From Candidatus Hodarchaeota archaeon (GTDB taxonomy: Archaea; Asgardarchaeota; Lokiarchaeia; Sigyniarchaeales; SOKP01), in contig JBHLKA010000001.1 of assembly GCA_048887145.1 (NCBI GenBank), positions 212 to 64,211 of the forward strand: DNA of 64,000 bases. The letters run 5' to 3'. Position numbers and translations under genes: made by a program. The notes under the pieces are model-generated. The model made no database searches. It was not told the DNA's origin and saw only the letters and a program-made list of their open reading frames with translations. Shown piece after piece: positions 1 through 63,012 of the stretch (position 1 is the first letter of the stretch; the number at the start of each line of letters is the position of its first letter).

Positions 1-320
1 ATCCATTTCTTTTTAGGTATCAATAATTCTCCACCAATATACATACCCAAAGTTATACCCGGAGCAGCCCACATATAACTTAGTAATGGATATACCCAAT
101 ATGGTTCAATATTAGTGTCTGTTATAAGAATTTTAATAAAATCGGTGGTTGGCCCTAACCATAATAATCCAACAAAAATAATAGTCAATGCAGTTACCGT
201 TAGAAGTTTAGCTTTCATTTTTCTTGCTTTATATAACCCGTAAAAACCTATTATTAGATTTAAAGTAAGTACACCCAAGGCAGAAATCCCGTTAAGCCAT
301 TCTACGTATGTAGCGAACAT
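1..320 (-). CDS. Membrane protein, truncated by the window edge (N-terminal part present)
   Basis: My own minus-strand translation from the ATG (complement of 318-320) gives MFATYVEWLNGISALGVLTLNLIIGFYGLYKARKMKAKLLTVTALTIIFVGLLWLG... It stays open to position 1 and has hydrophobic TM-like stretches. It is absent from the ORF track because it runs off the edge. Confidence 0.4.
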   Translation of the reverse strand, partial: MFATYVEWLNGISALGVLTLNLIIGFYGLYKARKMKAKLLTVTALTIIFVGLLWLGPTTDFIKILITDTNIEPYWVYPLLSYMWAAPGITLGMYIGGELLIPKKKW

Positions 321-2040: not shown

Positions 2041-2412
2041 TTAATCCAATAAAGCTGCTATTCTATTTGCGACACTCTGAATGTTGAGAAAAACCATTCC
2101 TAAACTTGCGTTAGCATGGCATAATGTACATAATATAGCATTTTCACCAGCTTTAGATAAAATTATAATTCCACTTACACCCTCAATAAGAATCCTTTTT
2201 AAACCTCCACGATCTAATTCCTCAACCGCTCTTTCTGATACACTCTGAATTGCTGCTGACATAGCAGATACAATACCATCATTTACATCACGGCTTAAAA
2301 CAGAACAAATTGGAAGTCCTTGTACACTAACAATAGCAGACCCTTCTATATCCGAATTTACAGCAGATAATTTTCTTAGTAGATCTGTAAGTTCACTGAT
2401 GTTTTCAGACAA
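2041..2412 (-). CDS. Roadblock/LC7 (MglB-like) domain protein
   Basis: 123 aa. The pattern is typical of Robl/LC7: L..L......IEGSAIVS.QGLPI.S.......DG..SAM.AA....SER...EL..G.L....IEG..G.I.L...G. Confidence 0.8.
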   Translation of the reverse strand: MSENISELTDLLRKLSAVNSDIEGSAIVSVQGLPICSVLSRDVNDGIVSAMSAAIQSVSERAVEELDRGGLKRILIEGVSGIIILSKAGENAILCTLCHANASLGMVFLNIQSVANRIAALLD

Positions 2413-2639
2413 AATTTATTTCCTCCATAATGTATTATGTTGTAGAATTAATCTCCTTAACTTTTTCCTCAACAATAATGTAAATTAAATGGGTGATAAA
2501 TTATTCTATTATATGATCTATTAAAATTAACTATATTTAATTATTAATATTTACTTTATTTATTTTTATTTTTATTTTTAGTGTGAAATAATAAGCTTTT
2601 AAAAAATATTTTTATCAAAATTTACATTTACTGATTTTA

Positions 2640-3620
2640 ATGAGTAAGGATCAAAAATTAAAAAGTAGACCTGATGAAAAGAAAAGTAAAGAGGAATTAG
2701 AAAAAGAAGCTGAAGAAAAACAACATGAAATTGAATCACTCAGAAAAGCGGGAAAAATAGCTCAAGAAGTTAAAAGCTTTATTAAACCAAGGATAAAAAT
2801 AGAAGCTAAAGTTTTAGATTTAATTGAATCAACAGAATCTAAAATAGTGGAATTAGGAGGAAGCTGTGCTTTTCCTGTAAATGTAGGAATAAATAATATC
2901 GCAGCTCATTATACATCTCCATTAAGAGATGATAATCTAGTGATAAAGGATGGAGATATTGTAAAAATTGATTTAGGTGTACATATTGACGGATATCTTG
3001 TTGATACGGCTTTTACTATAAACTTTAATGATGAAAAAGCATTAGAAAATATTATTCAAGCAACAGAAGTGGCTGTAGAAGCAGCAAAAATGATGGCAAA
3101 ACCAAAAATTAATACAAAAGATATAGGAAAGAAAATTGAAGATATTGTAAGAGGATTTAAATATATTCCAATTAAAGAACTAGGTGGACATCAAGTTGAA
3201 AGATGGACAGTTCATGGCAAAAAACAATTACCTGAATTAGGATCTCAAAGCGGTGATATAATGGAAGAAGGAGATGTGTTTGCTGTCGAAATATTTGCCT
3301 CAACAGGAAACGGCTCTGTTCATTACACAAATGCCTCATATATTTACGAACTTAATCCCTATACTGGAAGGGTTCCTTTAAGAAGAAAATTTTCAAAACA
3401 GATCTTAGGATTTATTAATAAAAATTATAAAACCCTGCCGTTTGCTGAAAGATGGTTAGGTAAAGAATTTAGAATGGGTGTTCTTTTTGGAATTCAAGAA
3501 CTAGTACAACAAGATAAATTAAAAGTTCATAATGTTTTAGCAGAACAAAAAGGTACTTTCGTAGCTCAAACTGAAGAAACTATATTAATAACTGAGGATG
3601 GTTATGAACAACTAACTTAA
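2640..3620 (+). CDS. map: Methionine aminopeptidase, type 2 (archaeal/eukaryotic MetAP2 class) with a charged N-terminal extension
   Basis: Matches include LRKAGKIAQEV, GGSCAFPVNVGINNIAAHYTSP, GDIVKIDLGVHIDGYLVDTAFT, LGGHQVER, GDVFAVEIFASTG and LPFAERWL. It aligns to Pyrococcus-type MetAP from about residue 31 onward. Confidence 0.9.
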   Translation: MSKDQKLKSRPDEKKSKEELEKEAEEKQHEIESLRKAGKIAQEVKSFIKPRIKIEAKVLDLIESTESKIVELGGSCAFPVNVGINNIAAHYTSPLRDDNLVIKDGDIVKIDLGVHIDGYLVDTAFTINFNDEKALENIIQATEVAVEAAKMMAKPKINTKDIGKKIEDIVRGFKYIPIKELGGHQVERWTVHGKKQLPELGSQSGDIMEEGDVFAVEIFASTGNGSVHYTNASYIYELNPYTGRVPLRRKFSKQILGFINKNYKTLPFAERWLGKEFRMGVLFGIQELVQQDKLKVHNVLAEQKGTFVAQTEETILITEDGYEQLT

Positions 3621-3663
3621 CTTATATTTATTATCAATTGAAAATAGAAAAAAAATTCTGCAT

Positions 3664-4773
3664 ATGAAAAAGTTGAAAATTGCTCTTGTTTCTTTAACAA
3701 TTTCTCCAGATAGTCAAGATGGAAGCGCAAAATTTTTTTCAGGGATATATAATTATCTGAAAAATAGAGGTCATGACGTTAAGGTTATAACTGGTAGATG
3801 GAACCTCAATTTAGTTGATCCAAATATCTCACAAATTAAAATAATTCGAAAGAGTTATTTATGGATACCTCAATTCGCATTAAATGTTATTAAATTTCTA
3901 ACAAATATTGATTTTGATATTATTCATGGAAATGGACCTAAAGGTACTTTACCCTTACTATTATACAATAAAAATAATTTCATCTCAACTATTCATGATC
4001 TAGGACCTATTGAATCTAGTTTTTCAGTCATCCCAATTGAGAAGCTTTTAATTAAGGAAGTTATTAAAAAGGCTAATATCATAACAACATGTTCAGAATA
4101 TACAAGACAGCAAATTAAGAATTTCTTCCCTAAAATTGACCTAAAAAAAGTTCATAATTTATATTCGGCTATTGAAAGCAAGTTTAAACCTTATCCTAAA
4201 AAAGCAGAGCAACTTAAAGAAAATTTAGGGTTAAAAGGTCCAGTAGCTTTATATATTGGACGTATAGCCTTATATAAGGATATCGAAAATGTTATTAGAG
4301 CATATAAATATGCAAAAAGAGAAATCCCAAATCTCGAATTAGTAATTGGTGGAACTCCAGATTTTTATATGAAGGAAACTTATAAAAGGTGGAAACAAAA
4401 ATATAAAGATATTCATTTTATTGGGTTCATTCCAGAAGTAGAACTACCTATTTATTATAGCTTGGGTGATGTTTTTATTACTTATTCATATTCTTCAGAA
4501 GGATTTGGACTAACTCCAATTGAAGCAATTGCTTGTGGGACTCCTGCTATTTGCTCTTCTATAGGAGCATATAGAGAAGTTTTACAAAACCATGCGATTT
4601 TTGTTCCACCAAAAAACCCGAAATTTTTAGCAAAAGAACTAATTAATTTAATTAAAAGTGATGAAAAGCGCAGAGAATTACTTAAGCATGCTCAAGAATT
4701 TATATCCAGATATTCATGGAATTCTGTTGGAAAAAAATTAGAGGAAGTTTATGAAAAATTCTTATCAATATAA
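3664..4773 (+). CDS. Glycosyltransferase, family 4 (GT-B, retaining)
   Basis: C-terminal GT4 signature: YSSEGFGLTPIEAIACGTPAICSSIGAYREV. 369 aa. Confidence 0.85.
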   Translation: MKKLKIALVSLTISPDSQDGSAKFFSGIYNYLKNRGHDVKVITGRWNLNLVDPNISQIKIIRKSYLWIPQFALNVIKFLTNIDFDIIHGNGPKGTLPLLLYNKNNFISTIHDLGPIESSFSVIPIEKLLIKEVIKKANIITTCSEYTRQQIKNFFPKIDLKKVHNLYSAIESKFKPYPKKAEQLKENLGLKGPVALYIGRIALYKDIENVIRAYKYAKREIPNLELVIGGTPDFYMKETYKRWKQKYKDIHFIGFIPEVELPIYYSLGDVFITYSYSSEGFGLTPIEAIACGTPAICSSIGAYREVLQNHAIFVPPKNPKFLAKELINLIKSDEKRRELLKHAQEFISRYSWNSVGKKLEEVYEKFLSI

Positions 4774-4774
4774 A

Positions 4775-5845
4775 TTAGTTTTCTATTTTTTTACTAAATT
4801 CATTCAAGGCAATTTCTATTGGATTTTCGAATTGTCTTAATTTTTCTTTTGTATCTATTTTGTAATTCTTTTCTAAAAATTTTAAAGCGGTATTAATTAT
4901 TAAATTGGCATTCTTTACATGTTTTAACGGAAAACCATTATCTATAAGAAATTGCTCTTGAGGGTAAGTAGCTAATGGAAAAAATTCTATTGATGGAACA
5001 CCTAATAGCGCAGATTCTCTAACCATCGTCCCTCCTCCAGTTATAACCATTTTAGCATAAAACATAAAATGTGCTAGATTGTTTAATCCAGTGTATACTC
5101 TTATTACATTTTGTTTTATAGATTCCTTGAAAAATTTACTTAAGTATTTAAATTGTTCAACATTCCGGGTTAATATTAAAAATTTAAAATCAACTTCATT
5201 TTCAAGTAATTTTGGTATAATTTCACTCAATTTGGTTTCATGCGGAGCCATTTTATCTGTTAAATAGCCTGCTTTTGATGGCTCTGTTCGACATACAATA
5301 TACTTTTCAGGATTAAGCCCATGGGCTTTAATAATTTCTCTATTTGGTTTAAAATCAGAAAGCCATCCAACCTCATCAATCCCATTAAATCTAATTATTT
5401 TCTCCTCCTTTAATCCATAATCCAAATACCACTCGATAGGAATACATTGAGGAACTATAATTTGGTTAACATATGGAAACGTTGTGGAGCATGGGCCATA
5501 AGATCGCGGTTCGTCGTTAAACATAATATTAGGAATTTGAAGACCGAAAGAAATTCTCATCGCTTCTGGAGAAGTGATACAAAACAAAAAATTAGGCTTT
5601 CTTTTTATTATAATTTTTATTAACTTTGATAACCTATTCGAATATGCTAATAACTTTCCTTTTAGTGTTCCACCACCATAGCTTCCTACAGGAGTATAAT
5701 TGATACCCCACTGATCTAATAAGAAGTGAGTAGAATCAAAATCCCTAGCTGTTATAAAGACGTTATGATCACCTATTAATTTCTCATATAAAGGTCTTAA
5801 CATAGTCACACTTTTAGGTTCGCAAAAATCTAACCATATTTTCAT
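4775..5845 (-). CDS. DUF354-family protein (GT-B/epimerase-like, glycan biosynthesis associated)
   Basis: The N-terminus MKIWLDFCEPKSVTMLRPLYEKL... resembles the DUF354 start (MKIWIDI..PK....F.PLI.EL). GGGTMVRESALLGVPSIE is a GT-B-like C-terminal motif. Confidence 0.5.
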   Translation of the reverse strand: MKIWLDFCEPKSVTMLRPLYEKLIGDHNVFITARDFDSTHFLLDQWGINYTPVGSYGGGTLKGKLLAYSNRLSKLIKIIIKRKPNFLFCITSPEAMRISFGLQIPNIMFNDEPRSYGPCSTTFPYVNQIIVPQCIPIEWYLDYGLKEEKIIRFNGIDEVGWLSDFKPNREIIKAHGLNPEKYIVCRTEPSKAGYLTDKMAPHETKLSEIIPKLLENEVDFKFLILTRNVEQFKYLSKFFKESIKQNVIRVYTGLNNLAHFMFYAKMVITGGGTMVRESALLGVPSIEFFPLATYPQEQFLIDNGFPLKHVKNANLIINTALKFLEKNYKIDTKEKLRQFENPIEIALNEFSKKIEN

Positions 5846-5867
5846 GAAATCCCTTCTAAGTATTTAA

Positions 5868-6872
5868 TTATACACGTGGTTTATAGTTCCAAAATTCTGG
5901 ATTTTTTTTTATCCATTCAAGTTCTTTCTTTATACCTTCAATTAAACTCGTTTTTGGTTTATATCCCAATGTTTTATGAATTAAAGAATTATCAAGTATA
6001 AAATCTTGTAATTCTCCTGGTAACCTTTTTCGATCTGGTTGATACTTACTGGCTTTTCCTGGTGGAGGATTGTCAAAAATGGGGCTTATAGAATTTCCAA
6101 ATTGTTTTATTAAGATATGTGCTAAATCAATAATTGAATATGAGGTTCCTCCACCTACATTGAAAACCATACCATTGGCCTTTTCACTTTTTATTGCCAT
6201 AATATTTGCTGCAATAGCATCCGATATATAAACAAAATCCCTTCTTTGTTTACCGTCACCGAATATAACGGGTGATTTTCCCTCTAATAGACGTTTTATA
6301 AAAATTGTTAGTACTCTTCCGTACCATTCTCGAGGACCATATACTATTCCATATCTCAGAGAGATAGTTGGGAGGCTATATAATAAATAATATTGACTAC
6401 AATACTTCTCTCCTGCTAATTTACTTACACCATAAGGCCAATGAGGCATAAGAGGATGGTTTTCTGTTTCAGGAATAAATTGCGCTTGACCATAAACGCC
6501 TCCCGATGACGCATACACTAATTTTTTAACATTATTTTTTAGAGAAGCATTTAAAACATTTAGAGTCCCGATAATATTTGTTTTTAAGTCATGTAGGGTA
6601 TTTTCTATTCCCGTAAAAACTTCTAATTCAGCAGCATGGTGAGAAACAATGTCTATATTTTTCATGCATGAATTTAATTTGTTAAAATCTAATATATCGC
6701 CGTCAATAATCTCAACGGGTTTATTTTGGATGAAATCTTTAGTTCCTGTTGAAAAATTATCGTATATAATTATATTCCTTGCTTTCTCTTCTATAATGCG
6801 ATCTACTAAATGAGATCCTATAAATCCTGCTCCACCTGTTATTAAAACACTTTTATCTTTGATTTCCATCAT
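5868..6872 (-). CDS. NAD-dependent nucleotide-sugar epimerase/dehydratase (SDR family)
   Basis: Rossmann motif VLITGGAGFIGSHLVDRI, catalytic YGVSKLAGE (YxxxK), 334 aa. Confidence 0.85.
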   Translation of the reverse strand: MMEIKDKSVLITGGAGFIGSHLVDRIIEEKARNIIIYDNFSTGTKDFIQNKPVEIIDGDILDFNKLNSCMKNIDIVSHHAAELEVFTGIENTLHDLKTNIIGTLNVLNASLKNNVKKLVYASSGGVYGQAQFIPETENHPLMPHWPYGVSKLAGEKYCSQYYLLYSLPTISLRYGIVYGPREWYGRVLTIFIKRLLEGKSPVIFGDGKQRRDFVYISDAIAANIMAIKSEKANGMVFNVGGGTSYSIIDLAHILIKQFGNSISPIFDNPPPGKASKYQPDRKRLPGELQDFILDNSLIHKTLGYKPKTSLIEGIKKELEWIKKNPEFWNYKPRV

Positions 6873-7114: not shown

Positions 7115-8479
7115 ATGATTTTAATATCACAATTTAATTGGGAAATACTTGAATTTTTTTATTTAGTCATTATATTTATCAGCGGCTTTTTTGTAACTTA
7201 TACATTTATACCTTATCTCATAAAATTTATGAGAAATAAAGGGTTTGTTGGTTATGATATTCACAAAAATGCAAAACCTGAAATTCCTGAGTCAGGAGGC
7301 TTAAGCCTTATCCTTGGTTTGACTGTAACTTCGTTATTCGCCATCATTTTTTTTCCTATTTTGCGTAATGAATTGCTAGTTTTTCTCTTAACGATTTTAT
7401 TATCCGGAGCAATAGGTTTTATTGATGATCGGATAAAATTAAGATCTTTATATAAGATTTTATTAACGGTTTTTACAGGAGCAATTATTTTTGTAGCAAA
7501 TTTTTTTGGTTTTATAACCATCCATTCTCCTACAATACCTTTTCTAGGATTTACAAGATTAACAAGAATTTATCCATATGTGGCTCCTTTCATCGTAGCT
7601 TTTTTTGCAAACACATCGAATATGCTAGAAGGATATAATGGTGAAGGTTCAGGGACATCATTAATTGCATTATGTTTTCTTCTAATTTGTGCAATATTTT
7701 GGAATTCTGCTGAAGCTGTAATATTCATTATTTCTGGAATTAGTGTTTTGATTCCTTTTTTCCTATATAATAAATTTCCTGCAAAAATCTTTCCTGGAGA
7801 TATAGGTACTTTAGGCACGGGTTCTCTTTTTGCGTGTATTGCATTATTAGGGTCATTAGAGGTTGCAGTATTTTGTGCACTTCTTATTCAAGTTATAAAT
7901 AGTTTTTATGTAATTAGTTCAGTAAAAGGTTTTTTAGAAAGCAGTCAGATTCAAACTCAGAAAAATGATATAATCCTTTTAGAGGATGATAGAATCAAAG
8001 CCTCAGATCAAAAGGATGCAGCATTAACCTTACCGAGATTAATCTTAGCAAAAGGACCATTAAAAGAACCAGAATTAATAAAACAATTTTATATTATTTC
8101 AATTATTTGTGGGATTTTTTCCATAACTGCCTTCTTATCTATACAATGGACATTGGGTAATTTAAATGCTCTTACCTTTTTCCTTATTTTCATGGTTTTT
8201 CTAGTTTTAATAATATTAATATCATACTTTTTTCCCAGAATAAGGGGAACCGTAATTTTGATGATAATTCTTTTAGCTATAATTAGTATATCATTGATTT
8301 TTATCGATTCTGTTATCATGTCGATTTTTCAAGAGGATATTAACTTAGGAATAATAGTAATTCCTAGTAATATCCTTTTTTCAATCCTTTTAGTTACTCC
8401 AGGATTAATATTATGGTATTTGTTAACAATCAAATTTTTTTGGAGAGAAATTGACAAAATGAAAGAATTGGGAACTTAG
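7115..8479 (+). CDS. Polyprenyl/dolichyl-phosphate N-acetylhexosamine-1-phosphate transferase (MraY/WecA/ALG7 family, AglH-like)
   Basis: Polytopic membrane protein with GFIDDRIKL, NMLEGYNGEGSG and FPGDIGTLGTG motifs of the GPT family. It has an extra C-terminal multi-TM extension. Confidence 0.75.
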   Translation: MILISQFNWEILEFFYLVIIFISGFFVTYTFIPYLIKFMRNKGFVGYDIHKNAKPEIPESGGLSLILGLTVTSLFAIIFFPILRNELLVFLLTILLSGAIGFIDDRIKLRSLYKILLTVFTGAIIFVANFFGFITIHSPTIPFLGFTRLTRIYPYVAPFIVAFFANTSNMLEGYNGEGSGTSLIALCFLLICAIFWNSAEAVIFIISGISVLIPFFLYNKFPAKIFPGDIGTLGTGSLFACIALLGSLEVAVFCALLIQVINSFYVISSVKGFLESSQIQTQKNDIILLEDDRIKASDQKDAALTLPRLILAKGPLKEPELIKQFYIISIICGIFSITAFLSIQWTLGNLNALTFFLIFMVFLVLIILISYFFPRIRGTVILMIILLAIISISLIFIDSVIMSIFQEDINLGIIVIPSNILFSILLVTPGLILWYLLTIKFFWREIDKMKELGT

Positions 8480-8586: not shown

Positions 8587-9651
8587 ATGAAAAAAATATT
8601 AGTTACTGGTTCGGGAGGTCCAGCAGGAGTGAATTTTCTAAAATCGTTGAGCTTAGTTAAGGAGAAAATCCAATTATATGGTACAGATATTAATCCTTAT
8701 CATTTAGAATTTGGAAAACCCTGGACAAATAAAATGTTTTTAGTTCCTCGTGCAGTTTCAGATCAGTACATACCAAGCTTAAATGAGATAATAAATCAAT
8801 ATAAAATACAATTTATCCATCCTCAACCTGATATTGAGGTCTTTAAAGTTTCTGAAAATCGTGAAAAACTTAACGCAATTACATTTTTACCAAAAAAAGA
8901 TACAATTCGAACTTGTCAAGATAAATTTTTAAGTGCTGATATTTGGAGAAAAAAAAATTTTCCTTCTGTTAGAGCCATTGAAATAAGGGATACCCATTTA
9001 GAAAGTGATCTGGAAAATGCTTTTGATTGGTTAGGAGAAAAATTATGGATTCGTGCCAAAAAAGGTGCTGGTGGTACTGGAAGCACTCCAATTAAAAATG
9101 TAGAAACTGGAGTTAATTGGATTAAATATTGGCGTGCCCGCGGAAAAAAATGGGATTTTATTGCCCAAGAATATTTACCAGGCAGAAATATTGCTTTTCA
9201 AAGCATTTTTAAGAATGGAGAGTTAATTACCTCACAAGCTAGAGAAAGAATTGAATATATTTATCCTTATCTCGCTCCTTCGGGAGTTACGGGAACCCCT
9301 ATAGTAGCTAAAACTATACATGATGATAATGTAAACAAAATGGCAACTGAGACAGTATTAGCAATTGATCCAGACGCAACAGGCGTATTTTGTGTTGATT
9401 TAAAAGAAGATAAAAATGGAGAAATTTGCCCTACAGAAATTAATGCGGGTAGATTTTTTACAACGAGCTATTTTTTCTCTTATGCCGCTAAAAAATTCAA
9501 TAAACCTTTAGCAAACATGCCTTATATTTTGGTAAAACTTGCATTTAAAGAATCAATTCCTGAAAGTCAAAAATTCAATATTTTGCCAAAAGATCTCTAT
9601 TGGATAAGGCATATAGATTGCTCTGAACATTTAATTGAAGGGAAAGTTTAA
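8587..9651 (+). CDS. ATP-grasp domain protein
   Basis: Matches LVTGSGGPAGVN, KKGAGGTGS, IAQEYLPGRNIAFQS and CPTEINAGRF (the E.N.R of ATP-grasp). It sits in a glycan-biosynthesis neighbourhood. Confidence 0.65.
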   Translation: MKKILVTGSGGPAGVNFLKSLSLVKEKIQLYGTDINPYHLEFGKPWTNKMFLVPRAVSDQYIPSLNEIINQYKIQFIHPQPDIEVFKVSENREKLNAITFLPKKDTIRTCQDKFLSADIWRKKNFPSVRAIEIRDTHLESDLENAFDWLGEKLWIRAKKGAGGTGSTPIKNVETGVNWIKYWRARGKKWDFIAQEYLPGRNIAFQSIFKNGELITSQARERIEYIYPYLAPSGVTGTPIVAKTIHDDNVNKMATETVLAIDPDATGVFCVDLKEDKNGEICPTEINAGRFFTTSYFFSYAAKKFNKPLANMPYILVKLAFKESIPESQKFNILPKDLYWIRHIDCSEHLIEGKV

Positions 9652-9676: not shown

Positions 9677-9976
9677 TTAATATTCATTCGTACATTTACA
9701 GGGCTTATAACCACATTTTTTACACTGATTTGGGTATTTATTAAAGAGAGCATGCTCTAAATCAATGTTCAATAAGTTTGCTAATGAATTTGTCCACGCA
9801 ATGATATCAGCTAATTCTTCTGAAATTTTAGCAGTATCAATATTATTTTTTTTCAAAAGTGTTGCCAATTCACCAATTTCCTCTACTAACCATAAGAATG
9901 TATTTTTAATGCCTCTCTTACAATCTTTCTTAAAATATAACTCTTTCATTAAATCTTGAAACTCAGAAATCTTCAT
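9677..9976 (-). CDS. MazG-like nucleotide pyrophosphohydrolase domain protein with a Cys-rich C-terminal tail
   Basis: LVEEIGELA...EELADIIAW is the EExxE/ExxD MazG helix pair. The tail is CKKCGYKPCKC. Confidence 0.6.
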   Translation of the reverse strand: MKISEFQDLMKELYFKKDCKRGIKNTFLWLVEEIGELATLLKKNNIDTAKISEELADIIAWTNSLANLLNIDLEHALFNKYPNQCKKCGYKPCKCTNEY

Positions 9977-10017: not shown

Positions 10018-10236
10018 TCAGCCAGGTGTAAATAACCATTCAAAAATACCAAGATGAGCAAAAATTACTATTAAAATTAATGCAACTGTCAAAATAACTG
10101 TACTAATAGGTCCCACCTTTATACCAATAGAACTATCCTCGAAAAACCTCATTAACCCCGCTCCTCCCATAGGCATTGGAGCAGTTCCACTTCGTCTTTT
10201 TCGGCGTCTTGATTGGGATCTTCTTTTTGTAGACAT
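10018..10236 (-). CDS. secG: Protein translocase subunit Sec61-beta (archaeal SecG)
   Basis: 72 aa with a basic N-terminus, GGAGLMRFFEDSS.GIKVGP, then a single C-terminal TM. This is the Sec61beta signature. Confidence 0.75.
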   Translation of the reverse strand: MSTKRRSQSRRRKRRSGTAPMPMGGAGLMRFFEDSSIGIKVGPISTVILTVALILIVIFAHLGIFEWLFTPG

Positions 10237-10394
10237 GATTTCTAATTTATCAAAAAGTTTTTAATCAGGAATTATTTTAATATAGAATTCTATTAATATT
10301 AAGTTTTATCCCGAATTATAAAAATAAAATTAAATAAATTTTTATTATTTATTTTAATTATTTGTAGTTAATTTAAGGAGTAAAATATAAAGAT

Positions 10395-12269
10395 ATGTTC
10401 AGAAGAAAAAAAATTTGTTTATTAGCTATAGGATTGATTTTTCTAATTATTCTAATATCAAATATTCATTATAATTCTGAAAACAGTAAGATTAACGAGG
10501 AAAATATAACTCCAAAATTATCTACAAGTTTAGAAGGAGTAGAGAATATTTTAATTACAGATATGATACGAACTGTAAATATTAGCGGATATGATCTAGT
10601 AAATTTTAAAGACAAATTAACGATTTTAAATCAAAATAATAACCCAATAACTTCAATATTTTTTCCAATACATTTAAACAAATCAAATGATGTAATATTT
10701 TGTAAAGCAACGGGTGAGAGCAAGAATACTCTATTAACTGAAAGAAACTATCTTGTTTTAAATGATTATGAACTAATAGCTATCTATTTTGATTCACCAC
10801 TATTACCCCATCAAAAAACAACTATATCTTTTTACCATTCACTCACAAATTGTCTAATTTATTATACAGAATTAACTGCGGAATATCAACTTGAACAATA
10901 TATCAATATAACAGAATCTATTTTTCCAATTTTACCTTATAAAGCAGAAGGTGGGGAAATCCAGACAAATTTCATATTACCTAAGACCTCAAATGTTATT
11001 TGGTTTGATACAGTAGAGGATCTTGGATTCCCTATCATTGAAACTCACATAGTATATGATTTGACTCAAACTCTTTATTTTGATCGTGTAGACCCATTTC
11101 TAGCAAATTTCAATAAATCTCAACAAGAGGTCTTAATTACTTTTCAAGACAATAGATTTACCAAAATGGAATTCGAAAAAGTCAATCGCGAAATAAATAT
11201 CTCACCATGGGGAATAATTAAAGTTAAAGAGAATTACATATTCCAGAATTTGGGAGCTATTGATATAAGCACTTTCCCATTACATATTCCGTATAGCTCC
11301 AAAAATGTGCATGTGTATGATGATATTGGCAACATTGGTGAAGATGTTGTTTTAGATGATAGTGAGGCATTTTCAAATAAAAAATCATTTATTATTAATT
11401 TAGCTCAAAACAGAGTCCCATTGAAACCATTATCTAAAATCAGTTTTACTGTAGAATATTTTTTAGACATTAGTGATTACAATTCAATAAATTGGTTTCA
11501 AGAATCAATCCAAATCAATTTATTTACAACAACCTTTGATTGGGTAAGTAGGGAACAAACTATTAATGTTGTTGTTCAAGGATGTAATAATTTGGAATAT
11601 GTGTCGCTTCCACCTGATGCAATAATTGATTCTGGAGGTTCAAAAACTTTGGTATATAACTTTAACATTGTAACCTCAATTGAATCTAAAATGATTCAAT
11701 TCACTTTTTCAATTGATCTCTTTGAATTATTACTTAGACCAATTTTAATTTCATTAATAATTGGACTTTTAGCATCAATTTATGTTATTGTAATTAAAAT
11801 CAAAAAAGAAAGAGAAGAAAAATTTGTTACTGAAAAAGTTGAAATTCCTGTAGATGAACTTCGCGAATATTGTTCATTATCAGAGGAAAAAAATGCTTTA
11901 GTTTTAGAAATTAGAAGAGCGGAAGAAGATGCTAAACGAAAAAAAATAGCAAAGAAAGTATACAGTAATCTCTTAAGCAAAAACACTACCAAAATAGAGC
12001 AAATCAAACAAGAATTACTTCCATTTAAAAAAGTTCTAATAGAAACTAGTGAAACTTTTGAAAATACAATCAAAAAATTAGATGTTTTAGATGCTGAAAG
12101 AGAAAGCGTGAATGATAGTCTAACTTTATTAGATAATCGATATAAAAGAGGTAAGTTACCCTCTAAAGCTGCTTATCAAAAACTTCTTGAAGATTTCATG
12201 AAAAGGAGGAGAAGGATTGATAGAACAATAGATAAAAATATTCAACAGTTAAGAAGCTATTTACTATAA
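10395..12269 (+). CDS. Ribophorin I / OST1-like oligosaccharyltransferase subunit homologue
   Basis: It has an N-terminal signal-anchor, a ~430 aa extracytoplasmic domain, one TM ([24 protein letters not shown]) and a ~155 aa charged coiled-coil tail. Remembered human RPN1 motifs are matched. [12 protein letters not shown] resembles [35 protein letters not shown] resembles [34 protein letters not shown] resembles VYYRDEIGNV. Confidence 0.6.
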   Translation: [624 protein letters not shown]

Positions 12270-12303: not shown

Positions 12304-12927
12304 ATGAAACCATGGCTATTTGATATTTTAGCATGCCCTATAGATAAACACTTCCCTTTAGAATTATTTATTTTTTCATTTGGGACAAGCGAAGATGAAT
12401 TTCAATTATTTGTAAATAATTATAAGAAAAGAGATTTAGAAATTGTTAAAAAAGAAAATATTATTGAAATATATCGAGAAAATGATAATTTATTTGTCAA
12501 AGATAATATTATCATCGAACAAACTCCCATTCAAAAATACCTTGAGTTAATAAGTTTAAGTATTAACGAATTAGATTTTATACATGATAAATCATCAAAT
12601 AAAGCTAGCAAAATATGTTTCAATATAATTAAAAATGAAATTAAAAAGAAAATTATAAACTATTCTAAAAATATAAAGCTTGACAAGATTGAAACATTAT
12701 TACCGGAATTTATTTTTATAAATAAAATTAAACTCGAAACTGAGATTGAATCAGGTCTTTTATTTTGTCCAAGATGTAAACGCTGGTTCCCCATAAGAGA
12801 CAGCATTCCACAAATGCTTCCAGATGAATACAGAAATGAAAACGAAGAAATTGACTTTTTAAAACTTAATAGTAAATTATTAGGAGAAAAATTTTTTAAA
12901 CACGATTTAAAACCATTTAATATTTAA
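12304..12927 (+). CDS. Trm112-like zinc-ribbon protein with a large internal insertion
   Basis: The N-terminal half-motif LFDILACPIDKH and the C-terminal half LLFCPRCKRWFPIRDSIPQMLPDE form the Trm112 signature. They are separated by about 130 aa. Confidence 0.55.
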   Translation: MKPWLFDILACPIDKHFPLELFIFSFGTSEDEFQLFVNNYKKRDLEIVKKENIIEIYRENDNLFVKDNIIIEQTPIQKYLELISLSINELDFIHDKSSNKASKICFNIIKNEIKKKIINYSKNIKLDKIETLLPEFIFINKIKLETEIESGLLFCPRCKRWFPIRDSIPQMLPDEYRNENEEIDFLKLNSKLLGEKFFKHDLKPFNI

Positions 12928-12959: not shown

Positions 12960-13032
12960 AGCCCGGTGGTGTAGCGGCCAAGCATATGGGGCCTTGAACC
13001 CCGTGACCACGGTTCGAATCCGTGCCGGGCTA
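12960..13032 (+). tRNA. tRNA-Gln (anticodon UUG)
   Basis: Hand-folded cloverleaf. The acceptor AGCCCGG/CCGGGCU has A1-U72 as in archaeal tRNA-Gln. T arm is CACGG-TTCGAAT-CCGTG. Anticodon arm is TGGGG-CCTTGAA-CCCCG, giving 34-36 = TTG. No CCA is encoded. Position 33 reads as C. Confidence 0.8.
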
Positions 13033-13228: not shown

Positions 13229-14179
13229 ATGATAAGCACTGTTAAAAATATTTTAAATCTTTTGCGAATAAGACAGTATTACAAAAATTTATTAATTTTT
13301 GTAGGTTCTTTCTTTGGTGGGAAATTATTAGACATTTCAATTTTACCACTTCTTATTTTAGGCTTTATTATTTTATGTTGCGCATCTTCAATCAATTATA
13401 TTATAAATGATATAATCGATATCAAAAAAGATAAACTACACCCAGAAAAATTAGAAAAAAAAGCCCTCGCTTCTGGAAACCTTTCTATATTGTTTGCCCT
13501 GGTCTTAATGGCATTCCTTTCTGCAGTTATAATAATTTTATTGATATTTTTAATCCCAAATTTAAATTTCATCATCATGCTGGGATTAGTATTTGGAACG
13601 GGACAACTATATAATTATTTCTTTAAAAAGTTTGCATTTATTGATGTTTTAGTTTTAGCATTAATTTACCTATGGCGTGCATTAGCAGGATGCGTCTTGA
13701 TAGATATTATTGTATCTCCATGGTTAATTTTAGCTGTATATGAAGCTGCATTATTTTTGGTTATTGCAAAAAGAAAAGGAGATTTAATATTATTAGGAGA
13801 AGAAAAAGCCAAAGTACATAAAAAAATCTACAAACAATATAACATGAAATTGTTAGACCAATTCCATACCATCACTGCTGCTACAATCTTAATTACTTAT
13901 ACTATGTATTTAATATCTCAATTCTATCTATTCGAAGATTTAAGTTTTTTTTATCAATACTTAATAATATTATCTATACCCACTCTATTTTATATTATTA
14001 TGAGATATATGTTTTTAACAAGAGCGAAACCCGAAATTGCTCGGAGTACTGAAAAAGTAATTTTCGATAAGGGAATCCTTATCGCTGGGTTATTTTTAGG
14101 TGCGATATTCTTTTTTACTTTTTATTATATTGATATAAAGCAGATTCTATATGATCTGTTTAAAATATCTTTACCTTAA
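13229..14179 (+). CDS. UbiA-family prenyltransferase (decaprenyl-phosphate phosphoribosyltransferase-like subfamily)
   Basis: Polytopic membrane protein. It has LRIRQYYKNLLIF at the N-terminus and the NDIIDIKKDKLHP (NDxxDxxxD) motif. Confidence 0.75.
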   Translation: MISTVKNILNLLRIRQYYKNLLIFVGSFFGGKLLDISILPLLILGFIILCCASSINYIINDIIDIKKDKLHPEKLEKKALASGNLSILFALVLMAFLSAVIIILLIFLIPNLNFIIMLGLVFGTGQLYNYFFKKFAFIDVLVLALIYLWRALAGCVLIDIIVSPWLILAVYEAALFLVIAKRKGDLILLGEEKAKVHKKIYKQYNMKLLDQFHTITAATILITYTMYLISQFYLFEDLSFFYQYLIILSIPTLFYIIMRYMFLTRAKPEIARSTEKVIFDKGILIAGLFLGAIFFFTFYYIDIKQILYDLFKISLP

Positions 14180-36970: not shown

Positions 36971-38077
36971 ATGAGTAGCTGGAAAGATTTATATTCTGAA
37001 GTTAAACAACGTAAAATGGAAGCCCTCAATAAAAAGGATGTTGTTAAAGCAGTTGAAGAACATGGTAAAATCTTGGCTGTTGAAGGAAGATATGAGAAAC
37101 CTAAAAAAATTATTGAACATATGTATGCCGCAGCTCATGAAACAATAAAGCCAAAACAAATAATGAAATATAACCTTAAAGATTATGATGTTGTGTTGAT
37201 TGGATGCCCGGGTGATGGAGTGCCACATTCAGCTTATCCAAAAATTAAAGAATATGTATCAACACATGGAGGTTGGTTAATTACAACAGATTGGGCAATT
37301 AAAACTTTGGTTGAAGTAATTTTTCCGGGGTATATACGCTGGAATGGAAAAAAGACTGCTGATGCAGTTGTTGCTTGTCAAATAATGGAACCAAATCACC
37401 CCTTTTTGGATGGTGTCTTAACTGAAATCCAACAGAGTAAATGGCAAAAAGGTGCCTCAAAAAATACTAAAAAAACAGAATTTCGATGGTGGTTGGAGAC
37501 TAAAAGTTTTCCCATTACTATATTGAATCCAACTGTTCATATTTTAATATCATCGCAAGATATTCTTCGAAAGTGGGGAGAATCTCCTGTATTTTTATAT
37601 TTTGATTATGGTAAAGCTGGTGGTAGGGTAATTCATATGATCTCCCATACTCATTTACAAAAAGGAGGTCCTAAAGGAAAATACGCATCAGCACTTATAT
37701 TAACTAACATTTTAGATGAAAAAGTCTCTCAAAAGACAGGTATTTCAAAATCACCTGCGACAGGATATATTTCTAATTGGGAACAAGCCCAACAACCTCA
37801 ACAGCAATATATAACACCTAATCAACAAAAAAACTTTTTAACTCCTTCGGATGCAGTTATTGGATTAACCGGAACTGCACAAATCGTAGAAATTAATGAA
37901 AATAGCAACGAATTTTCATTTGCTAGTAAATGTGGTTATTGTGGATATGATTTTGGTGAATATACTGGCAAAATTTATATGTGCAATGCCTGTAAAACAC
38001 CATATCATGAAACCTGTCTAAATATGCAGATAAATGAGGGTAACTGCAAGAATTGTGACAAAATCTTGTTATGGTAG
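36971..38077 (+). CDS. Two-domain protein: GATase1-like/DUF4159-like N-domain, Q/P-rich linker, C-terminal C4HC3 cross-brace zinc finger
   Basis: The N-domain has VVLIGCPGDG.....YPKIKEYVSTHGGWLITTDWA. The C-terminus reads C-x2-C-x13-C-x2-C-x4-H-x2-C-x9-C-x2-C (CGYCGYDFGEYTGKIYMCNACKTPYHETCLNMQINEGNCKNC). Confidence 0.5.
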   Translation: MSSWKDLYSEVKQRKMEALNKKDVVKAVEEHGKILAVEGRYEKPKKIIEHMYAAAHETIKPKQIMKYNLKDYDVVLIGCPGDGVPHSAYPKIKEYVSTHGGWLITTDWAIKTLVEVIFPGYIRWNGKKTADAVVACQIMEPNHPFLDGVLTEIQQSKWQKGASKNTKKTEFRWWLETKSFPITILNPTVHILISSQDILRKWGESPVFLYFDYGKAGGRVIHMISHTHLQKGGPKGKYASALILTNILDEKVSQKTGISKSPATGYISNWEQAQQPQQQYITPNQQKNFLTPSDAVIGLTGTAQIVEINENSNEFSFASKCGYCGYDFGEYTGKIYMCNACKTPYHETCLNMQINEGNCKNCDKILLW

Positions 38078-54874: not shown

Positions 54875-56263
54875 ATGAAAAATAAAAAAATCTTAACCGT
54901 TCTAATAACATTTTTTATGATTTTTCAAGGGTTACTAATTTTTTCTATTCAGAACGTAAAAGGAACTGAAGTAATACCACCGCAATATTCTGAAGAATTA
55001 GACTTAAGTGGTGAATATTTATATAATATTTTAGATTTTGGCGAAAACTCGAATTGGATTAATTTTTCAGATGATTCTGAAGGGAAATGGGCAACTAATA
55101 TTAGCGATGAGATAAGAATTAATATTACCGGTTTTTATAAACGAGATCCTTATGATCTAGTTGGAGATACATTTTCTGATACAGATATGCCATGGTTTGA
55201 TATTAAAATATTTAAAAATAAAAATCTAAATTTTACACTTTTAAATGTTTCTAATAGTGAACTAGCGAGAAATCTAAAATTAGGATTTTCCCGATTTCAA
55301 TCTGGGTTTTTAATACCAAATAACCAGACTGAATGGATAAAAGCTAATGCAACTTTAGAAGCTAATGGAGCATCAGGTTTAACAGCAGACCTTACAATGG
55401 AAGAAACAATTAATTTCTTATATTTTAGGTTTGATCAATTTGGTGAAACTCAAAATCAAATAACAGAATTAATTTATGACAAAAAAACGGGATTATTAAT
55501 AAGAGCTAATACCACTTTAGGAAACTACAAACTTGCTTTATCATTAGCGAATTTTACTTTAGACATTGAAACTGAATATAAGTATAATGTTAATACTTTT
55601 GAACCTTTAGGGTGGGCAATTTGGACGGATTTATGGGGAACCTATAAAGATATTTATGCTACTGGATCAGAAAGAGGATGGATATTAGTAAATTTTACAG
55701 GATTTTATCATCGAGATCCTTTATTGTGGGATCCAGATCCTTTTAAGTATGCAGATGGAAGACCATGGCTAGATATTAAAGTAGTGTACGAGGGTGATGT
55801 TAGGACAGATATCACAATGCAAATGAATAATGTTTCAGATTCAGAATGTGCCAATAATTTGTTGATCTCTTTTCCTGGATTTTTATCAGGGTTTCTATTA
55901 CCTATAGTAAATAATGAGACTTATGATATTGAGGCAGAAGTTATAGCAGCTTCAGGGTTTACAGAAGATCGAGAATTTATATATGAGGAGACTGATTTAA
56001 CAATTGATATGTATTTCAAATGCGGAGGGTCTTTTCCGCAAGAGACAAGACTAATTTATGAAAAAATAACCGGTCTATTATTATATGTAGATACGACGGG
56101 ACAAAATTACCACCTTGAAATGAATATAGAAAATTATGAACTAGTTCAAAACGGTGTTGATACACCTTCAGAAATACCTTCATTCTCTATGATTGTTATA
56201 GTGAGTGTAGTTTTAATGACAATCTTAATAATCATCAAAATCAATAAAAAAAAGATGAAATAA
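54875..56263 (+). CDS. Secreted, C-terminally anchored surface protein with an internal domain duplication and many N-glycosylation sequons
   Basis: It has an N-terminal signal/TM and a C-terminal TM followed by KKKMK. Two homologous halves are present: NITGFYKRDPYD...PWFDIKIF...NVSNSELARNLKLGFSRFQSGFLIP versus NFTGFYHRDPLL...PWLDIKVV...NVSDSECANNLLISFPGFLSGFLLP. There are at least 12 N-x-S/T sites. Confidence 0.6.
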   Translation: MKNKKILTVLITFFMIFQGLLIFSIQNVKGTEVIPPQYSEELDLSGEYLYNILDFGENSNWINFSDDSEGKWATNISDEIRINITGFYKRDPYDLVGDTFSDTDMPWFDIKIFKNKNLNFTLLNVSNSELARNLKLGFSRFQSGFLIPNNQTEWIKANATLEANGASGLTADLTMEETINFLYFRFDQFGETQNQITELIYDKKTGLLIRANTTLGNYKLALSLANFTLDIETEYKYNVNTFEPLGWAIWTDLWGTYKDIYATGSERGWILVNFTGFYHRDPLLWDPDPFKYADGRPWLDIKVVYEGDVRTDITMQMNNVSDSECANNLLISFPGFLSGFLLPIVNNETYDIEAEVIAASGFTEDREFIYEETDLTIDMYFKCGGSFPQETRLIYEKITGLLLYVDTTGQNYHLEMNIENYELVQNGVDTPSEIPSFSMIVIVSVVLMTILIIIKINKKKMK

Positions 56264-57225: not shown

Positions 57226-58677
57226 TTAATTTTGAACATTTAAATCTTTTTTAGATTTCAATTTAAAACTTCTTAATTCTTTCAAAATGACTTTATCTCC
57301 CTTTCTTATAATTTTTCTAGTACTTTCAATCCCCACAATTACAGATCCTTTTGTTCCAAATGGACTAATTATTTTTGTAAAAGGAGGCTCTAATTTTCGC
57401 CCAATAATCTTTTTAGCACCTACTAAACTCTGTGCTAACCCACTACAAATAATACCTTGAGCATGTGATGGATTTTGAATGATTCCTTTTTTTATTTTAT
57501 ATTTATATAGTAATGGTGGTTCTTGATGTATCTTTATTAACTCTGCTGATCCTAAAATCCTTAAAGACGTTGGAGGCAAATCTAACCGACTTAATAACAT
57601 GGTTGTTTTTTCTTTACTAACTAGGATTCTCTCATTTAACCATAAAAAAGCTTTAAAGTTGGTTAAATCATTCTTCATATTCATTTGAATTCTTTTTCCG
57701 TCGAATTCATAATAAGGATATAAAAACCCTGCTGTAGTAAACATTCCAATTGTTACATGGAGTTGAGTACCAAAATGGGTTTCTTCTTTAAATAATTTGT
57801 TTTTATTTACTTTCACTTCAATTAAATCACAATAATCAAAAGCACGTATATTATCTGTTGCATAACACCCCCTATATATCTTGTTTGCATCCACTCCTTT
57901 AATATTGATCCCAATTCTATCACCTGCTTTTGCAAATTTTACTTCCTGATGAAAAATTTGAATCGATTTAACTCTCCCTGAAATTCCTAAAGGCATTATA
58001 TATATTTTTTGATTTAATTCTAATTTTCCCCTTAATAATGTGCCTGTGATTATTGTCCCTCTCCCTTTTATCGAAAAATGGTGATCTATGGGTATTTTGA
58101 TACTCCCCTTGAATTCTCTCTTTATATCAAGCTTTTTAATCTTTTCTAAAATCCCCTCTTTTAATTTTTCAAAACCCACTTTTTTTTTCGCAGATACAGC
58201 ATAAATCGGTATTTGTGCGCCAAAAGATGTTGATTGAAAGAAAACTCTTGTTTTTTCTATTTCTTGCTTAATATCCCCCTTAAATAGATCTATTTTGTTA
58301 AGCACAACTATGATATCTTTAATATTTAAAGCTTCTACCATTATTAAATGCTCACCAGTTTGAACTTGCGGTCCTTTATTAATGTCTATCACGATTATAG
58401 CACAATCAATTATTTCTACTGAGGAAGCACTTATTTTTATTAAATCTGCATGACCAGGACCATCAACCAATGATACTAAATAATCATCCAATACAAAACT
58501 TGTAAACCCTAAATCGATAGTTATGCCTCTTTCTTTACTTTGTGGATGAGCATCAATTCCTGCAGTCGATATTATTTCACTTAATACAGAAGCTATGGCA
58601 GTTTTTCCACAATCAATATGCCCGAACAATCCAATATGGATCGGTATTAATTTCTCAACGTCAATCATAAAAATCAC
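57226..58677 (-). CDS. selB: Selenocysteine-specific elongation factor SelB (archaeal type)
   Basis: G1 is GLFGHIDCGKT, G3 is VDGPGHADL, G4 is NKIDL. Domain II has IDHHFSIKGRGTIITGT. C-terminal archaeal-SelB motifs RLDLPPTSLRILG, GLAQSLVGAKKIIG and SPFGTKG parallel remembered Methanococcus SelB. 483 aa. Confidence 0.85.
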   Translation of the reverse strand: MIFMIDVEKLIPIHIGLFGHIDCGKTAIASVLSEIISTAGIDAHPQSKERGITIDLGFTSFVLDDYLVSLVDGPGHADLIKISASSVEIIDCAIIVIDINKGPQVQTGEHLIMVEALNIKDIIVVLNKIDLFKGDIKQEIEKTRVFFQSTSFGAQIPIYAVSAKKKVGFEKLKEGILEKIKKLDIKREFKGSIKIPIDHHFSIKGRGTIITGTLLRGKLELNQKIYIMPLGISGRVKSIQIFHQEVKFAKAGDRIGINIKGVDANKIYRGCYATDNIRAFDYCDLIEVKVNKNKLFKEETHFGTQLHVTIGMFTTAGFLYPYYEFDGKRIQMNMKNDLTNFKAFLWLNERILVSKEKTTMLLSRLDLPPTSLRILGSAELIKIHQEPPLLYKYKIKKGIIQNPSHAQGIICSGLAQSLVGAKKIIGRKLEPPFTKIISPFGTKGSVIVGIESTRKIIRKGDKVILKELRSFKLKSKKDLNVQN

Positions 58678-62919: not shown

Positions 62920-63012
62920 GGCCCTTGACGGTTAGAGTGGTCTCTGACGCTGGGCTTCAAACCCAGTTATCCTGCGGAGGGATAGGGGTTCGATTCCCCT
63001 CGAGGGCCGCCA
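62920..63012 (+). tRNA. tRNA-Sec (anticodon UCA), 9/4 fold, encoded CCA
   Basis: Hand fold. The acceptor is 9 bp (GGCCCUUGA/UCGAGGGCC, one U-G). The D stem is 7 bp (GUUAGAG/CUCUGAC) with a 4-nt loop UGGU. The anticodon arm is CUGGG-CUUCAAA-CCCAG, giving UCA. A long variable arm has UAUCC(U)/(G)GGAUA. The T arm is 4 bp, GGGG-UUCGAUU-CCCC. The discriminator is G and CCA lies at 63010-63012. Confidence 0.9.

Follow-up and report, generated by a model that had tools for sequence, protein, structure and literature searches.

A divergently oriented Sec61beta and ribophorin I/OST1 gene pair in an Asgard archaeal genome

The stretch of DNA analyzed here (the window) comprises 64,000 nucleotides of contig JBHLKA010000001.1 (positions 212 to 64,211 of the forward strand; assembly GCA_048887145.1, Candidatus Hodarchaeota archaeon) and has a G+C content of ~28%. 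Within it, a gene encoding a 72-aa Sec61beta (10018..10236, minus strand) and a gene encoding a 624-aa homologue of ribophorin I/OST1 (10395..12269, plus strand; hereafter, OST1) diverge from an intergenic region of 158 bp (10237..10394). An earlier note on this DNA, made from the sequence alone, had described a head-to-head pair of Sec61beta and ribophorin-I-like genes with a 158-bp spacer, and the list of open reading frames (ORFs) matches its coordinates exactly. The 624-aa protein is identical to an NCBI entry (P0001) that is annotated as “hypothetical protein” (ACFE8M_01030) and comes from a metagenome-assembled genome (MAG) labelled Candidatus Hermodarchaeota archaeon. Among the 274 word-indexed relatives of OST1, the named proteins carry Promethearchaeota (Asgard) labels almost throughout, which places the host among Asgard archaea of a Lokiarchaeia-type lineage.

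OST1 matches the Pfam family Ribophorin_I (PF04597) with an E value of 9e-18 and a score of 65 bits (cutoff, 25), and its residues 54-288 align to positions 3-229 of the 437-position profile. A profile of 22 homologues (alignment A1) matches human RPN1 (6s7o_E; E = 1e-08), with profile positions 104-461 aligned to RPN1 residues 88-457, that is, from the ectodomain through the transmembrane (TM) helix. The resemblance to ribophorin I put forward in the earlier note is therefore recovered at the profile level against both the family model and the human protein. The three motif blocks that it had named are all found in OST1 (RTVNIS at residues 59-64, SPWG...EN...G at residues 270-288, and YDDIGN at residues 308-313), and in the profile alignment the last two line up with their counterparts in human RPN1, including YrDEIGN. 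Residues W272, G273, N285, G287, and D309 are invariant or nearly so in the 22 OST1 homologues.

The fold leads to the same assignment. A full-length AlphaFold2 (AF2) model computed on alignment A1 (mean predicted local distance difference test [pLDDT] score, 81) has an N-terminal helix (residues 2-23), a disordered linker (residues 23-44), an all-beta region (residues 52-440), a long helix that starts at residue 442, and further helices toward the C terminus. The eight best Foldseek matches of this model in the PDB are human and yeast RPN1/Ost1 chains (8b6l_O, 6s7o_E, 8pn9_E, 6s7t_E, 7oci_A, 6ezn_A, 8agb_E, and 6c26_1), with E values from 4.9e-32 (8b6l_O) to 3.4e-21 (6c26_1), while the ninth match has an E value of 2.4e-08. 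The matches to human RPN1 (E = 3e-29 to 5e-32) extend over ~620 columns at an identity of only 16-17%, and superposition on the luminal-plus-TM chain 6s7t_E gives a target-normalised TM-score of 0.68 and a root-mean-square deviation (rmsd) of 5.4 Å. Yeast Ost1p (6EZN chain A, 7OCI chain A, 8AGB chain E, and 6C26 chain 1) shares the luminal fold and the TM helix (E = 1e-23 to 3e-21; target-normalised TM-score, ~0.62-0.65). Could the Pfam match be spurious and the ectodomain belong to some other Ig-like or S-layer type of surface domain, the outcome that the earlier note had named as refuting its reading? Beta-sandwich domains are common, and the Foldseek matches include integrin and M1-aminopeptidase N-domains, with E values of ~1e-07 to 1e-08. 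However, at least 13 orders of magnitude lie between the eight RPN1/Ost1 matches and all others, the Pfam score exceeds its cutoff by 40 bits, and the RPN1 profile alignment continues through the TM helix with the motif blocks in register. We consider this alternative already refuted and give it next to no probability. With a sequence score above the PF04597 threshold and an extracytoplasmic beta-sandwich fold as in the solved OST (oligosaccharyltransferase) complexes, the 624-aa protein is a ribophorin I/OST1 homologue that has two extracellular beta-sandwich domains with the RPN1 fold.

Hydropathy analysis finds two hydrophobic segments in OST1 (approximately residues 7-23 and 445-467), and, together with the AF2 model, it points to a type I-like topology with an N-terminal signal, a large ectodomain, and one TM helix near the C terminus. 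The N-terminal signal or anchor (residues 1-28; 10395..10478, plus strand) combines an RRKK n-region with a hydrophobic core of 16 residues. Cleavage motifs of the AxA type are present in distant OST1 homologues, but none is seen by eye in sequences of the window's clade; this segment may be a putative uncleaved anchor or a cleaved signal peptide. It is followed by the extracytoplasmic beta-sandwich domains delimited by AF2 and Foldseek (residues ~45-441; 10527..11717, plus strand), which form an acidic ectodomain (isoelectric point [pI], 4.6) with six N-X-S/T sequons, by the single TM helix recognized from hydropathy and AF2 (residues ~445-467; 11727..11795, plus strand), and by a basic cytosolic four-helix bundle supported by phmmer, AF2, and Foldseek (residues 468-624; 11796..12266, plus strand). 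Human RPN1, a component of OST-A in the ribosome-Sec61-TRAP-OST translocon (6S7O chain E and 8B6L chain O), likewise combines the luminal fold, a single TM helix, and a cytosolic helical bundle, and the ribophorin I layout ascribed to the protein in the earlier note holds for the Pfam match, the fold, the single TM helix, and the cytosolic tail. The two proteins differ in location: human RPN1 resides in the endoplasmic reticulum (ER), whereas the window OST1 would reside in the cell membrane, Asgard cells being without internal membranes (PMC11417166).

The cytosolic tail is the best-conserved region of OST1 among the 22 homologues. It is 157 aa long, 43% charged, and basic (pI 9.5), and it contains conserved stretches such as IQQLRSYLL and invariant K/R clusters (K514-K521 and R582-K584). 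Even homologues with an overall identity of just 18-28% retain the tail (alignment A2, whose homologues come from an exhaustive profile search that yielded 490 cluster representatives at E ≤ 1e-3). Its closest solved relative is chain A of 8WHN (“Ribophorin 1 superfamily protein”; phmmer E = 7.6e-35, profile E = 2.6e-45), a crystal structure in which Carilo, Senju, Yokoyama, and Robinson (J Biol Chem 2024, PMC11417166) solved the cytosolic domain of the OST1 protein from Candidatus Prometheoarchaeum syntrophicum MK-D1. An AF2 model of the tail alone (pLDDT, 89; predicted TM-score [pTM], 0.76) has helices at residues 486-514, 520-551, 553-584, and 591-621, and Foldseek places 8WHN first by far (E = 9.9e-09; TM-scores, 0.82/0.90; rmsd, 1.7 Å). 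The tail of ~155 aa was thus correctly anticipated as charged and cytosolic, but not as a coiled coil, because both the AF2 model and 8WHN are four-helix bundles. MK-D1 OST1 (WP_147663064.1) has the same overall layout as the window OST1, and their tails are 45% identical over 141 aligned columns. An MK-D1-type relative (P0142) is ~28% identical to the window OST1 overall, and the MK-D1-type proteins have no precomputed Pfam match, in contrast to the 65 bits of the window protein.

A C-terminal cytosolic four-helix bundle is a feature of metazoan-type RPN1. In the ribosome-Sec61-OST-A complex, the mammalian bundle contacts eL28 and the rRNA helices H25 and H19/20, according to the summary in Shrimal et al. 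2019 (PMC6761772), which cites Braunger et al. 2018. In yeast, Ost1p is without the bundle and the OST does not associate with ribosomes (PMC6761772); in this respect the window OST1 resembles mammalian RPN1 and not yeast Ost1p. The cytosolic domain of MK-D1 OST1 pulls down human ribosomes, and its extracellular domain does not (PMC11417166). By analogy with these proteins, and in view of its basic pI and its invariant K/R clusters, we suggest that the tail would bind the large ribosomal subunit in the organism from which the window derives.

The partner gene encodes a tail-anchored protein with a basic N terminus, a GGAGLMRFFEDSSIGIKVGP motif, and a C-terminal TM segment that lies within residues 36-72 (hydropathy, 19-residue windows). 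Its match to Pfam PF03911 is above threshold (E = 3.2e-12; 46.7 bits; cutoff, 27), while its score against the NCBIfam Sec61beta equivalog (48.2 bits) is under the cutoff of 55. The best solved relative by sequence is mammalian Sec61beta (2wwb_C; E = 5e-05), to which residues 6-62 align, and M. jannaschii SecBeta is matched with an E value of 0.3. Both the tail anchor and the motif G-x-x-RF-x-ED-S-x-G-[IL]-KVGP that precedes the TM segment are common to the Sec61beta/Sbh1/archaeal SecBeta family, and the small gene indeed encodes Sec61beta, as had been proposed. At 72 aa, the protein falls between M. jannaschii SecBeta (53 aa) and the eukaryotic Sec61beta proteins (82-125 aa) in length.

Because reports of the ribophorin I family from Asgard archaea go back to 2017, the core of these findings is known biology. 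Ost1/ribophorin I and Ost3 were listed as “previously reported in Asgard archaea” by Eme et al. 2023 (PMC10307638), and OST1, OST3/6, STT3, TRAP, and Sec61 alpha/beta/gamma are listed for MK-D1 by Carilo et al. (PMC11417166). Ost1 is also described as “typically present in Lokiarchaeia genomes” (PMC11284389). The same 2024 study states that Ost1 is absent from P. syntrophicum, whereas the cytosolic domain of its OST1 (WP_147663064.1) has been solved (PMC11417166). The reported absence is probably explained by the MK-D1-type proteins (P0142 and P0166) having no precomputed Pfam match. Synteny with Sec61beta and Trm112 does find the MK-D1-type OST1 genes, and Sec61beta synteny is a simple marker for divergent OST1 genes that Pfam misses. 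Hence, neither the family nor its layout nor the ribosome-binding tail is a novelty, and the window OST1 is a new, unannotated member. The pairing of Sec61beta with OST1, in contrast, appears to be undescribed: an operon, synteny, or a gene cluster is not mentioned in Carilo et al. (PMC11417166), and a full-text literature search found nothing on Sec61beta-ribophorin synteny in archaea. What is new here is modest, namely, the deep conservation of the divergent pair, its fixed promoter-like architecture, and its cluster with MazG, Trm112, DUF354, and AglH-like genes.

To either side of the pair in the window lie two further conserved genes. A 99-aa MazG-like NTP pyrophosphohydrolase (9677..9976, minus strand; PF03819, E = 5e-09) is co-directional with Sec61beta and located 41 bp downstream of it, and a 207-aa Trm112 homologue (12304..12927, plus strand; PF03966, E = 9e-13, with the match split over residues 5-167) starts 34 bp after OST1. 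We scanned the synteny of OST1 in one genome per GTDB species, which gave 80 loci with OST1 relatives 42-87% identical to the window protein, and all ORFs of these loci were translated and searched with the window proteins. Sec61beta lies upstream of OST1 on the opposite strand in all 78 loci that have upstream DNA, and it is directly adjacent in 76 of them; an inverted MazG gene sits between the two genes in L074 and L079. MazG is next to Sec61beta in 75/80 loci. Trm112 is immediately 3′ of OST1 in 80/80 loci, where the two genes often overlap or are only 1 bp apart; the same order is seen in L086, L088, L089, and L094-L096. The flanks of this core vary across the 80 loci, with an ATP-grasp gene in 12, an epimerase gene in 12, and a UbiA gene at changing distances. 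The taxonomic labels of the relatives clash, since proteins 84-87% identical to each other are tagged Hermodarchaeota, Odinarchaeota, and Promethearchaeota (loci L001, L010, L036, L047, and L060); one Asgard-type locus (L036, protein P0071) is labelled “Candidatus Nanopelagicaceae bacterium,” which suggests a mis-binned contig.

A profile search of the homologue database with the diverse alignment A2 led no farther than the window's clade, and a search with a single distant query (P0232) gave 9 matches. More distant lineages were sampled via representative proteins, and L094 was the only informative one of 5 metagenome loci. The divergent pair is found in L083 (P0166, 26% identical to the window OST1; 225-bp gap) and in the MK-D1-like L086 (P0142, 28% identical; 136-bp gap), which has MazG and Trm112 as well. 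In L087 (P0177, 21% identical) Sec61beta is an uncalled ORF (46-255, minus strand), and L094, whose OST1 is 40% identical to P0142, has the whole four-gene core (MazG, Sec61beta | OST1, Trm112). In L088 (P0153), MazG and Sec61beta are ~3 kb upstream of OST1, with two genes inserted. For MK-D1 itself, OST1 (WP_147663064.1) and Sec61beta (WP_147663065.1) have consecutive accessions in Table S1 of Carilo et al., which suggests that the two genes are adjacent there as well. Outside these lineages the conserved divergent adjacency is not seen. Sec61beta does not adjoin OST1 in Helarchaeota (L084/L085), in a “Lokiarchaeota”-labelled MAG locus (L089), in Borrarchaeum (L090), or at three loci with more distant homologues (L081, L082, and L093), and upstream of OST1 in L092 are STT3 and an OST3/6-like gene, not Sec61beta. 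The synteny that the earlier note had thought worth checking is strongly conserved. The Sec61beta-OST1 pairing is therefore an old and stable trait of Lokiarchaeia-type lineages that is not universal for archaeal OST1.

Even with all gene identities right, the head-to-head order might be merely inherited, without regulatory or functional meaning. A single Asgard clade supplied all 80 loci; Helarchaeota, Borrarchaeum, and more distant lineages do without the pair, and in L088 two inserted genes lie between Sec61beta and OST1. In addition, MazG and Trm112, functionally unrelated neighbors with no known role at the translocon, are kept in the cluster as tightly as Sec61beta. By itself, a conserved order is thus weak proof of functional coupling. 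However, the pair survives in L083 and L087, with different flanking genes and at the low end (21-28%) of OST1 identity, and the core stays in place while the ATP-grasp, epimerase, UbiA, and even AglH-like genes move. Taking also into account the sequence between the two genes, we regard a purely inherited order as possible but somewhat doubtful.

In 72 related loci in which start codons could be placed, the distance from one start to the other is mostly 147-159 bp, with a median of 153 bp. A MAFFT alignment of the intergenic regions reveals a central core of ~85 bp with a mean pairwise identity of 75%, versus ~50% in the other intergenic columns and ~40% expected from base composition. The near-constant spacing and the conserved core both count against a purely inherited order. 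In the window, the core occupies approximately positions 10295-10374 and contains three blocks: block A, AATATTAAGTTTTATC (10295-10310), a putative TATA box and B recognition element (BRE) for Sec61beta on the minus strand; block B, AATAAATTTTTAT (10333-10345), a putative BRE/TATA for OST1 on the plus strand; and block C, TTAATTATTTGTAGTTAATTT (10354-10374), at the predicted transcription start of OST1. The OST1 ATG lies 47-53 nt beyond the end of block B in 56/60 loci, and 22-27 nt beyond the end of a TAGATAA element. Blocks A and B may thus be back-to-back archaeal BRE/TATA elements, ~22 bp apart, that serve as promoters of the two genes, and such an arrangement probably ties the expression of Sec61beta and OST1 together.

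The blocks define no regulon inside the window. Block B occurs there at chance frequency (6 found versus 6.5 expected). Block C has one exact match, at its own locus, and 12 matches with ≤3 mismatches versus 3.2 expected; these near-matches were considered as a shared operator and rejected, as they are generic AT-rich intergenic sequence. Blocks A to C are missing from the intergenic regions of the distant loci L083, L086, and L087, so the conserved core is clade-specific.

Judged by its gene content, the neighborhood of OST1 in the window reads as a glycosylation island. It includes a GT1-family glycosyltransferase (3664-4773, plus strand), a DUF354 protein that is probably a GT-B-type glycosyltransferase (4775-5845, minus strand; PF04007, E = 7e-46), an NAD-dependent epimerase/dehydratase (5868-6872, minus strand), an AglH/Alg7-like polyprenyl-phosphate GlcNAc-1-P transferase (Glycos_transf_4; 7115-8479, plus strand; PF00953, E = 2.8e-26), an ATP-grasp enzyme (8587-9651, plus strand), and, beyond Trm112, a UbiA-family enzyme resembling decaprenyl-phosphate phosphoribosyltransferase (13229-14179, plus strand). 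Homologues of DUF354 lie <6 kb from OST1 in 71/80 Loki-type loci and in L088, and AglH-like homologues lie within the same distance in 71/80 Loki-type loci and in 4 more distant loci. The majority layout is DUF354, MazG, Sec61beta | OST1, Trm112, AglH-like, while the window has a minority layout with the AglH-like gene upstream. The AglH-like gene is the divergent neighbor of OST1 in Helarchaeota and in L089, and it is nearby in L088 and Borrarchaeum. In L092, from a distant archaeal lineage, genes for STT3 (690 aa), a membrane protein of 141 aa, and OST1 follow one another on the same strand (2106-6818, plus strand). The 141-aa protein matches the C-terminal TM part of OST3_OST6 at a score below threshold (E = 1.6e-4; 21.7 bits; cutoff, 27). 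We also observed that this protein is similar in size to DC2 and that the array looks like a three-gene OST operon. Such gene neighborhoods link the OST1 family of archaea with N-glycosylation by evidence other than homology.

These neighborhoods bear on a further possibility, in which OST1 acts without an oligosaccharyltransferase as a stand-alone ribosome receptor or translocon accessory that tethers ribosomes beside SecYE-beta. No other region of the protein is as conserved as the tail, the ectodomain diverges quickly, and the nearest conserved partner is a translocon subunit and not AglB, which is not in the window. Against this stand the RPN1 fold and the conserved motifs that the OST1 ectodomain retains, the location of a distant homologue in the array of STT3, OST3/6-like, and OST1 genes (L092), and the recurrence of the AglH-like gene as a neighbor across Asgard classes. 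Moreover, in published AF2 models MK-D1 OST1 is part of an OST complex that can be superimposed on human 8B6L (PMC11417166). We therefore find a stand-alone receptor very unlikely.

Overall, the observations are likely best explained by an Asgard orthologue of OST1, an accessory subunit of the oligosaccharyltransferase, in a ribosome-docked OST beside SecYE-beta, the channel to which Sec61beta belongs, with linked expression of the two genes. We propose that the OST1 ectodomain and TM helix would dock onto AglB/STT3, encoded elsewhere in the genome, and OST1 would be a physical subunit of the STT3/AglB complex. The bundle would hold this complex against the large ribosomal subunit, beside SecYE-beta in the cell membrane, so that nascent chains could be N-glycosylated on emerging; glycosylation would then be co-translational at SecYE-beta. 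Sec61beta and OST1 would be read outward from two back-to-back BRE/TATA-type promoters within the ~85-bp core and might thereby be co-regulated, as the earlier note had suggested, and the cluster would also carry, in the AglH-like gene, the first enzyme of lipid-linked glycan assembly. Such clustering of OST1 with Sec61beta and glycan-assembly genes is without a eukaryotic counterpart.

Several points weigh against a ribosome-docked OST with linked expression. The sequence relation of the tail to the human tail is undetectable, and a Foldseek comparison of the tail alone with human 8b6l_O gives an E value of 0.39. Ribosome pull-down has so far been limited to the MK-D1 protein with human ribosomes (PMC11417166). 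The window contains no AglB/STT3 gene, and no ORF in it exceeds 624 aa. The two promoters are predicted from general archaeal BRE/TATA rules. In mammalian structures, Sec61beta contacts DC2 and not RPN1 (PMC6761772), and therefore the adjacency of Sec61beta and OST1 mirrors no known direct contact. Finally, glycoproteomics of MK-D1 detected few heavily glycosylated proteins (PMC11284389).

A more far-reaching version of the proposal is that DUF354-MazG-Sec61beta | OST1-Trm112-AglH-like constitutes a dedicated expression unit for a translocon subunit, a ribosome-docking OST subunit, and the first glycan-assembly enzymes, in which the part of the “missing” second-step (Alg13/14-like) GlcNAc transferase would fall to DUF354. 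The second-step GlcNAc transferase was not found in most Asgard archaea (Meyer et al. 2022), and DUF354 has a weak match to PseG (GT28-like; E = 5e-04). A sequence search with DUF354 against the PDB gave no matches, and the Agl24 paper does not mention DUF354. We offer the assignment of DUF354 as a putative second-step GlcNAc transferase of Asgard archaea as speculation, and consider the dedicated unit as a whole unlikely. If true, it would mean that Lokiarchaeia had, already before eukaryogenesis, genetically fixed a station for co-translational glycosylation similar to OST-A.

Asgard homologues of Sec61, OST, and TRAP are central to ideas on the origin of the eukaryotic ER machinery, and the window adds no new component to them. 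What it does provide is an OST1 gene genetically locked to Sec61beta in Lokiarchaeia-type genomes, and thus a testable handle on the coupling of glycosylation and translocation.

In the homologue of the methyltransferase activator Trm112 that is locked to OST1, the halves of the zinc ribbon are parted by an insertion of ~120 aa (match over residues 5-167 versus a 40-position Pfam profile). A tRNA-Gln(TTG) gene (12960-13032, plus strand) follows Trm112 after 33 bp. It is present at this position in 8/50 related Loki-type loci scanned, and we rejected it as a core member of the cluster on that count. In two unrelated distant loci, L082 (7706-7888) and L084 (6867-7061; Helarchaeota), a gene for a ferredoxin (Fer4) of 60-64 aa directly follows OST1.

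Elsewhere in the window, a 462-aa ORF (54875..56263) was considered as SecY and dropped, as it has no Pfam match. A 368-aa protein (36971-38077, plus strand) with C-terminal sub-cutoff matches to a PHD finger and a prokaryotic RING finger (E ~3e-4) may be a eukaryote-like zinc-finger protein. The window also carries a tRNA-Sec gene (62920-63012, plus strand; Rfam RF01852, 62 bits) and a gene for a SelB-type elongation factor with an aSelB_III domain (57226-58677, minus strand), from which it follows that the organism has selenocysteine machinery.

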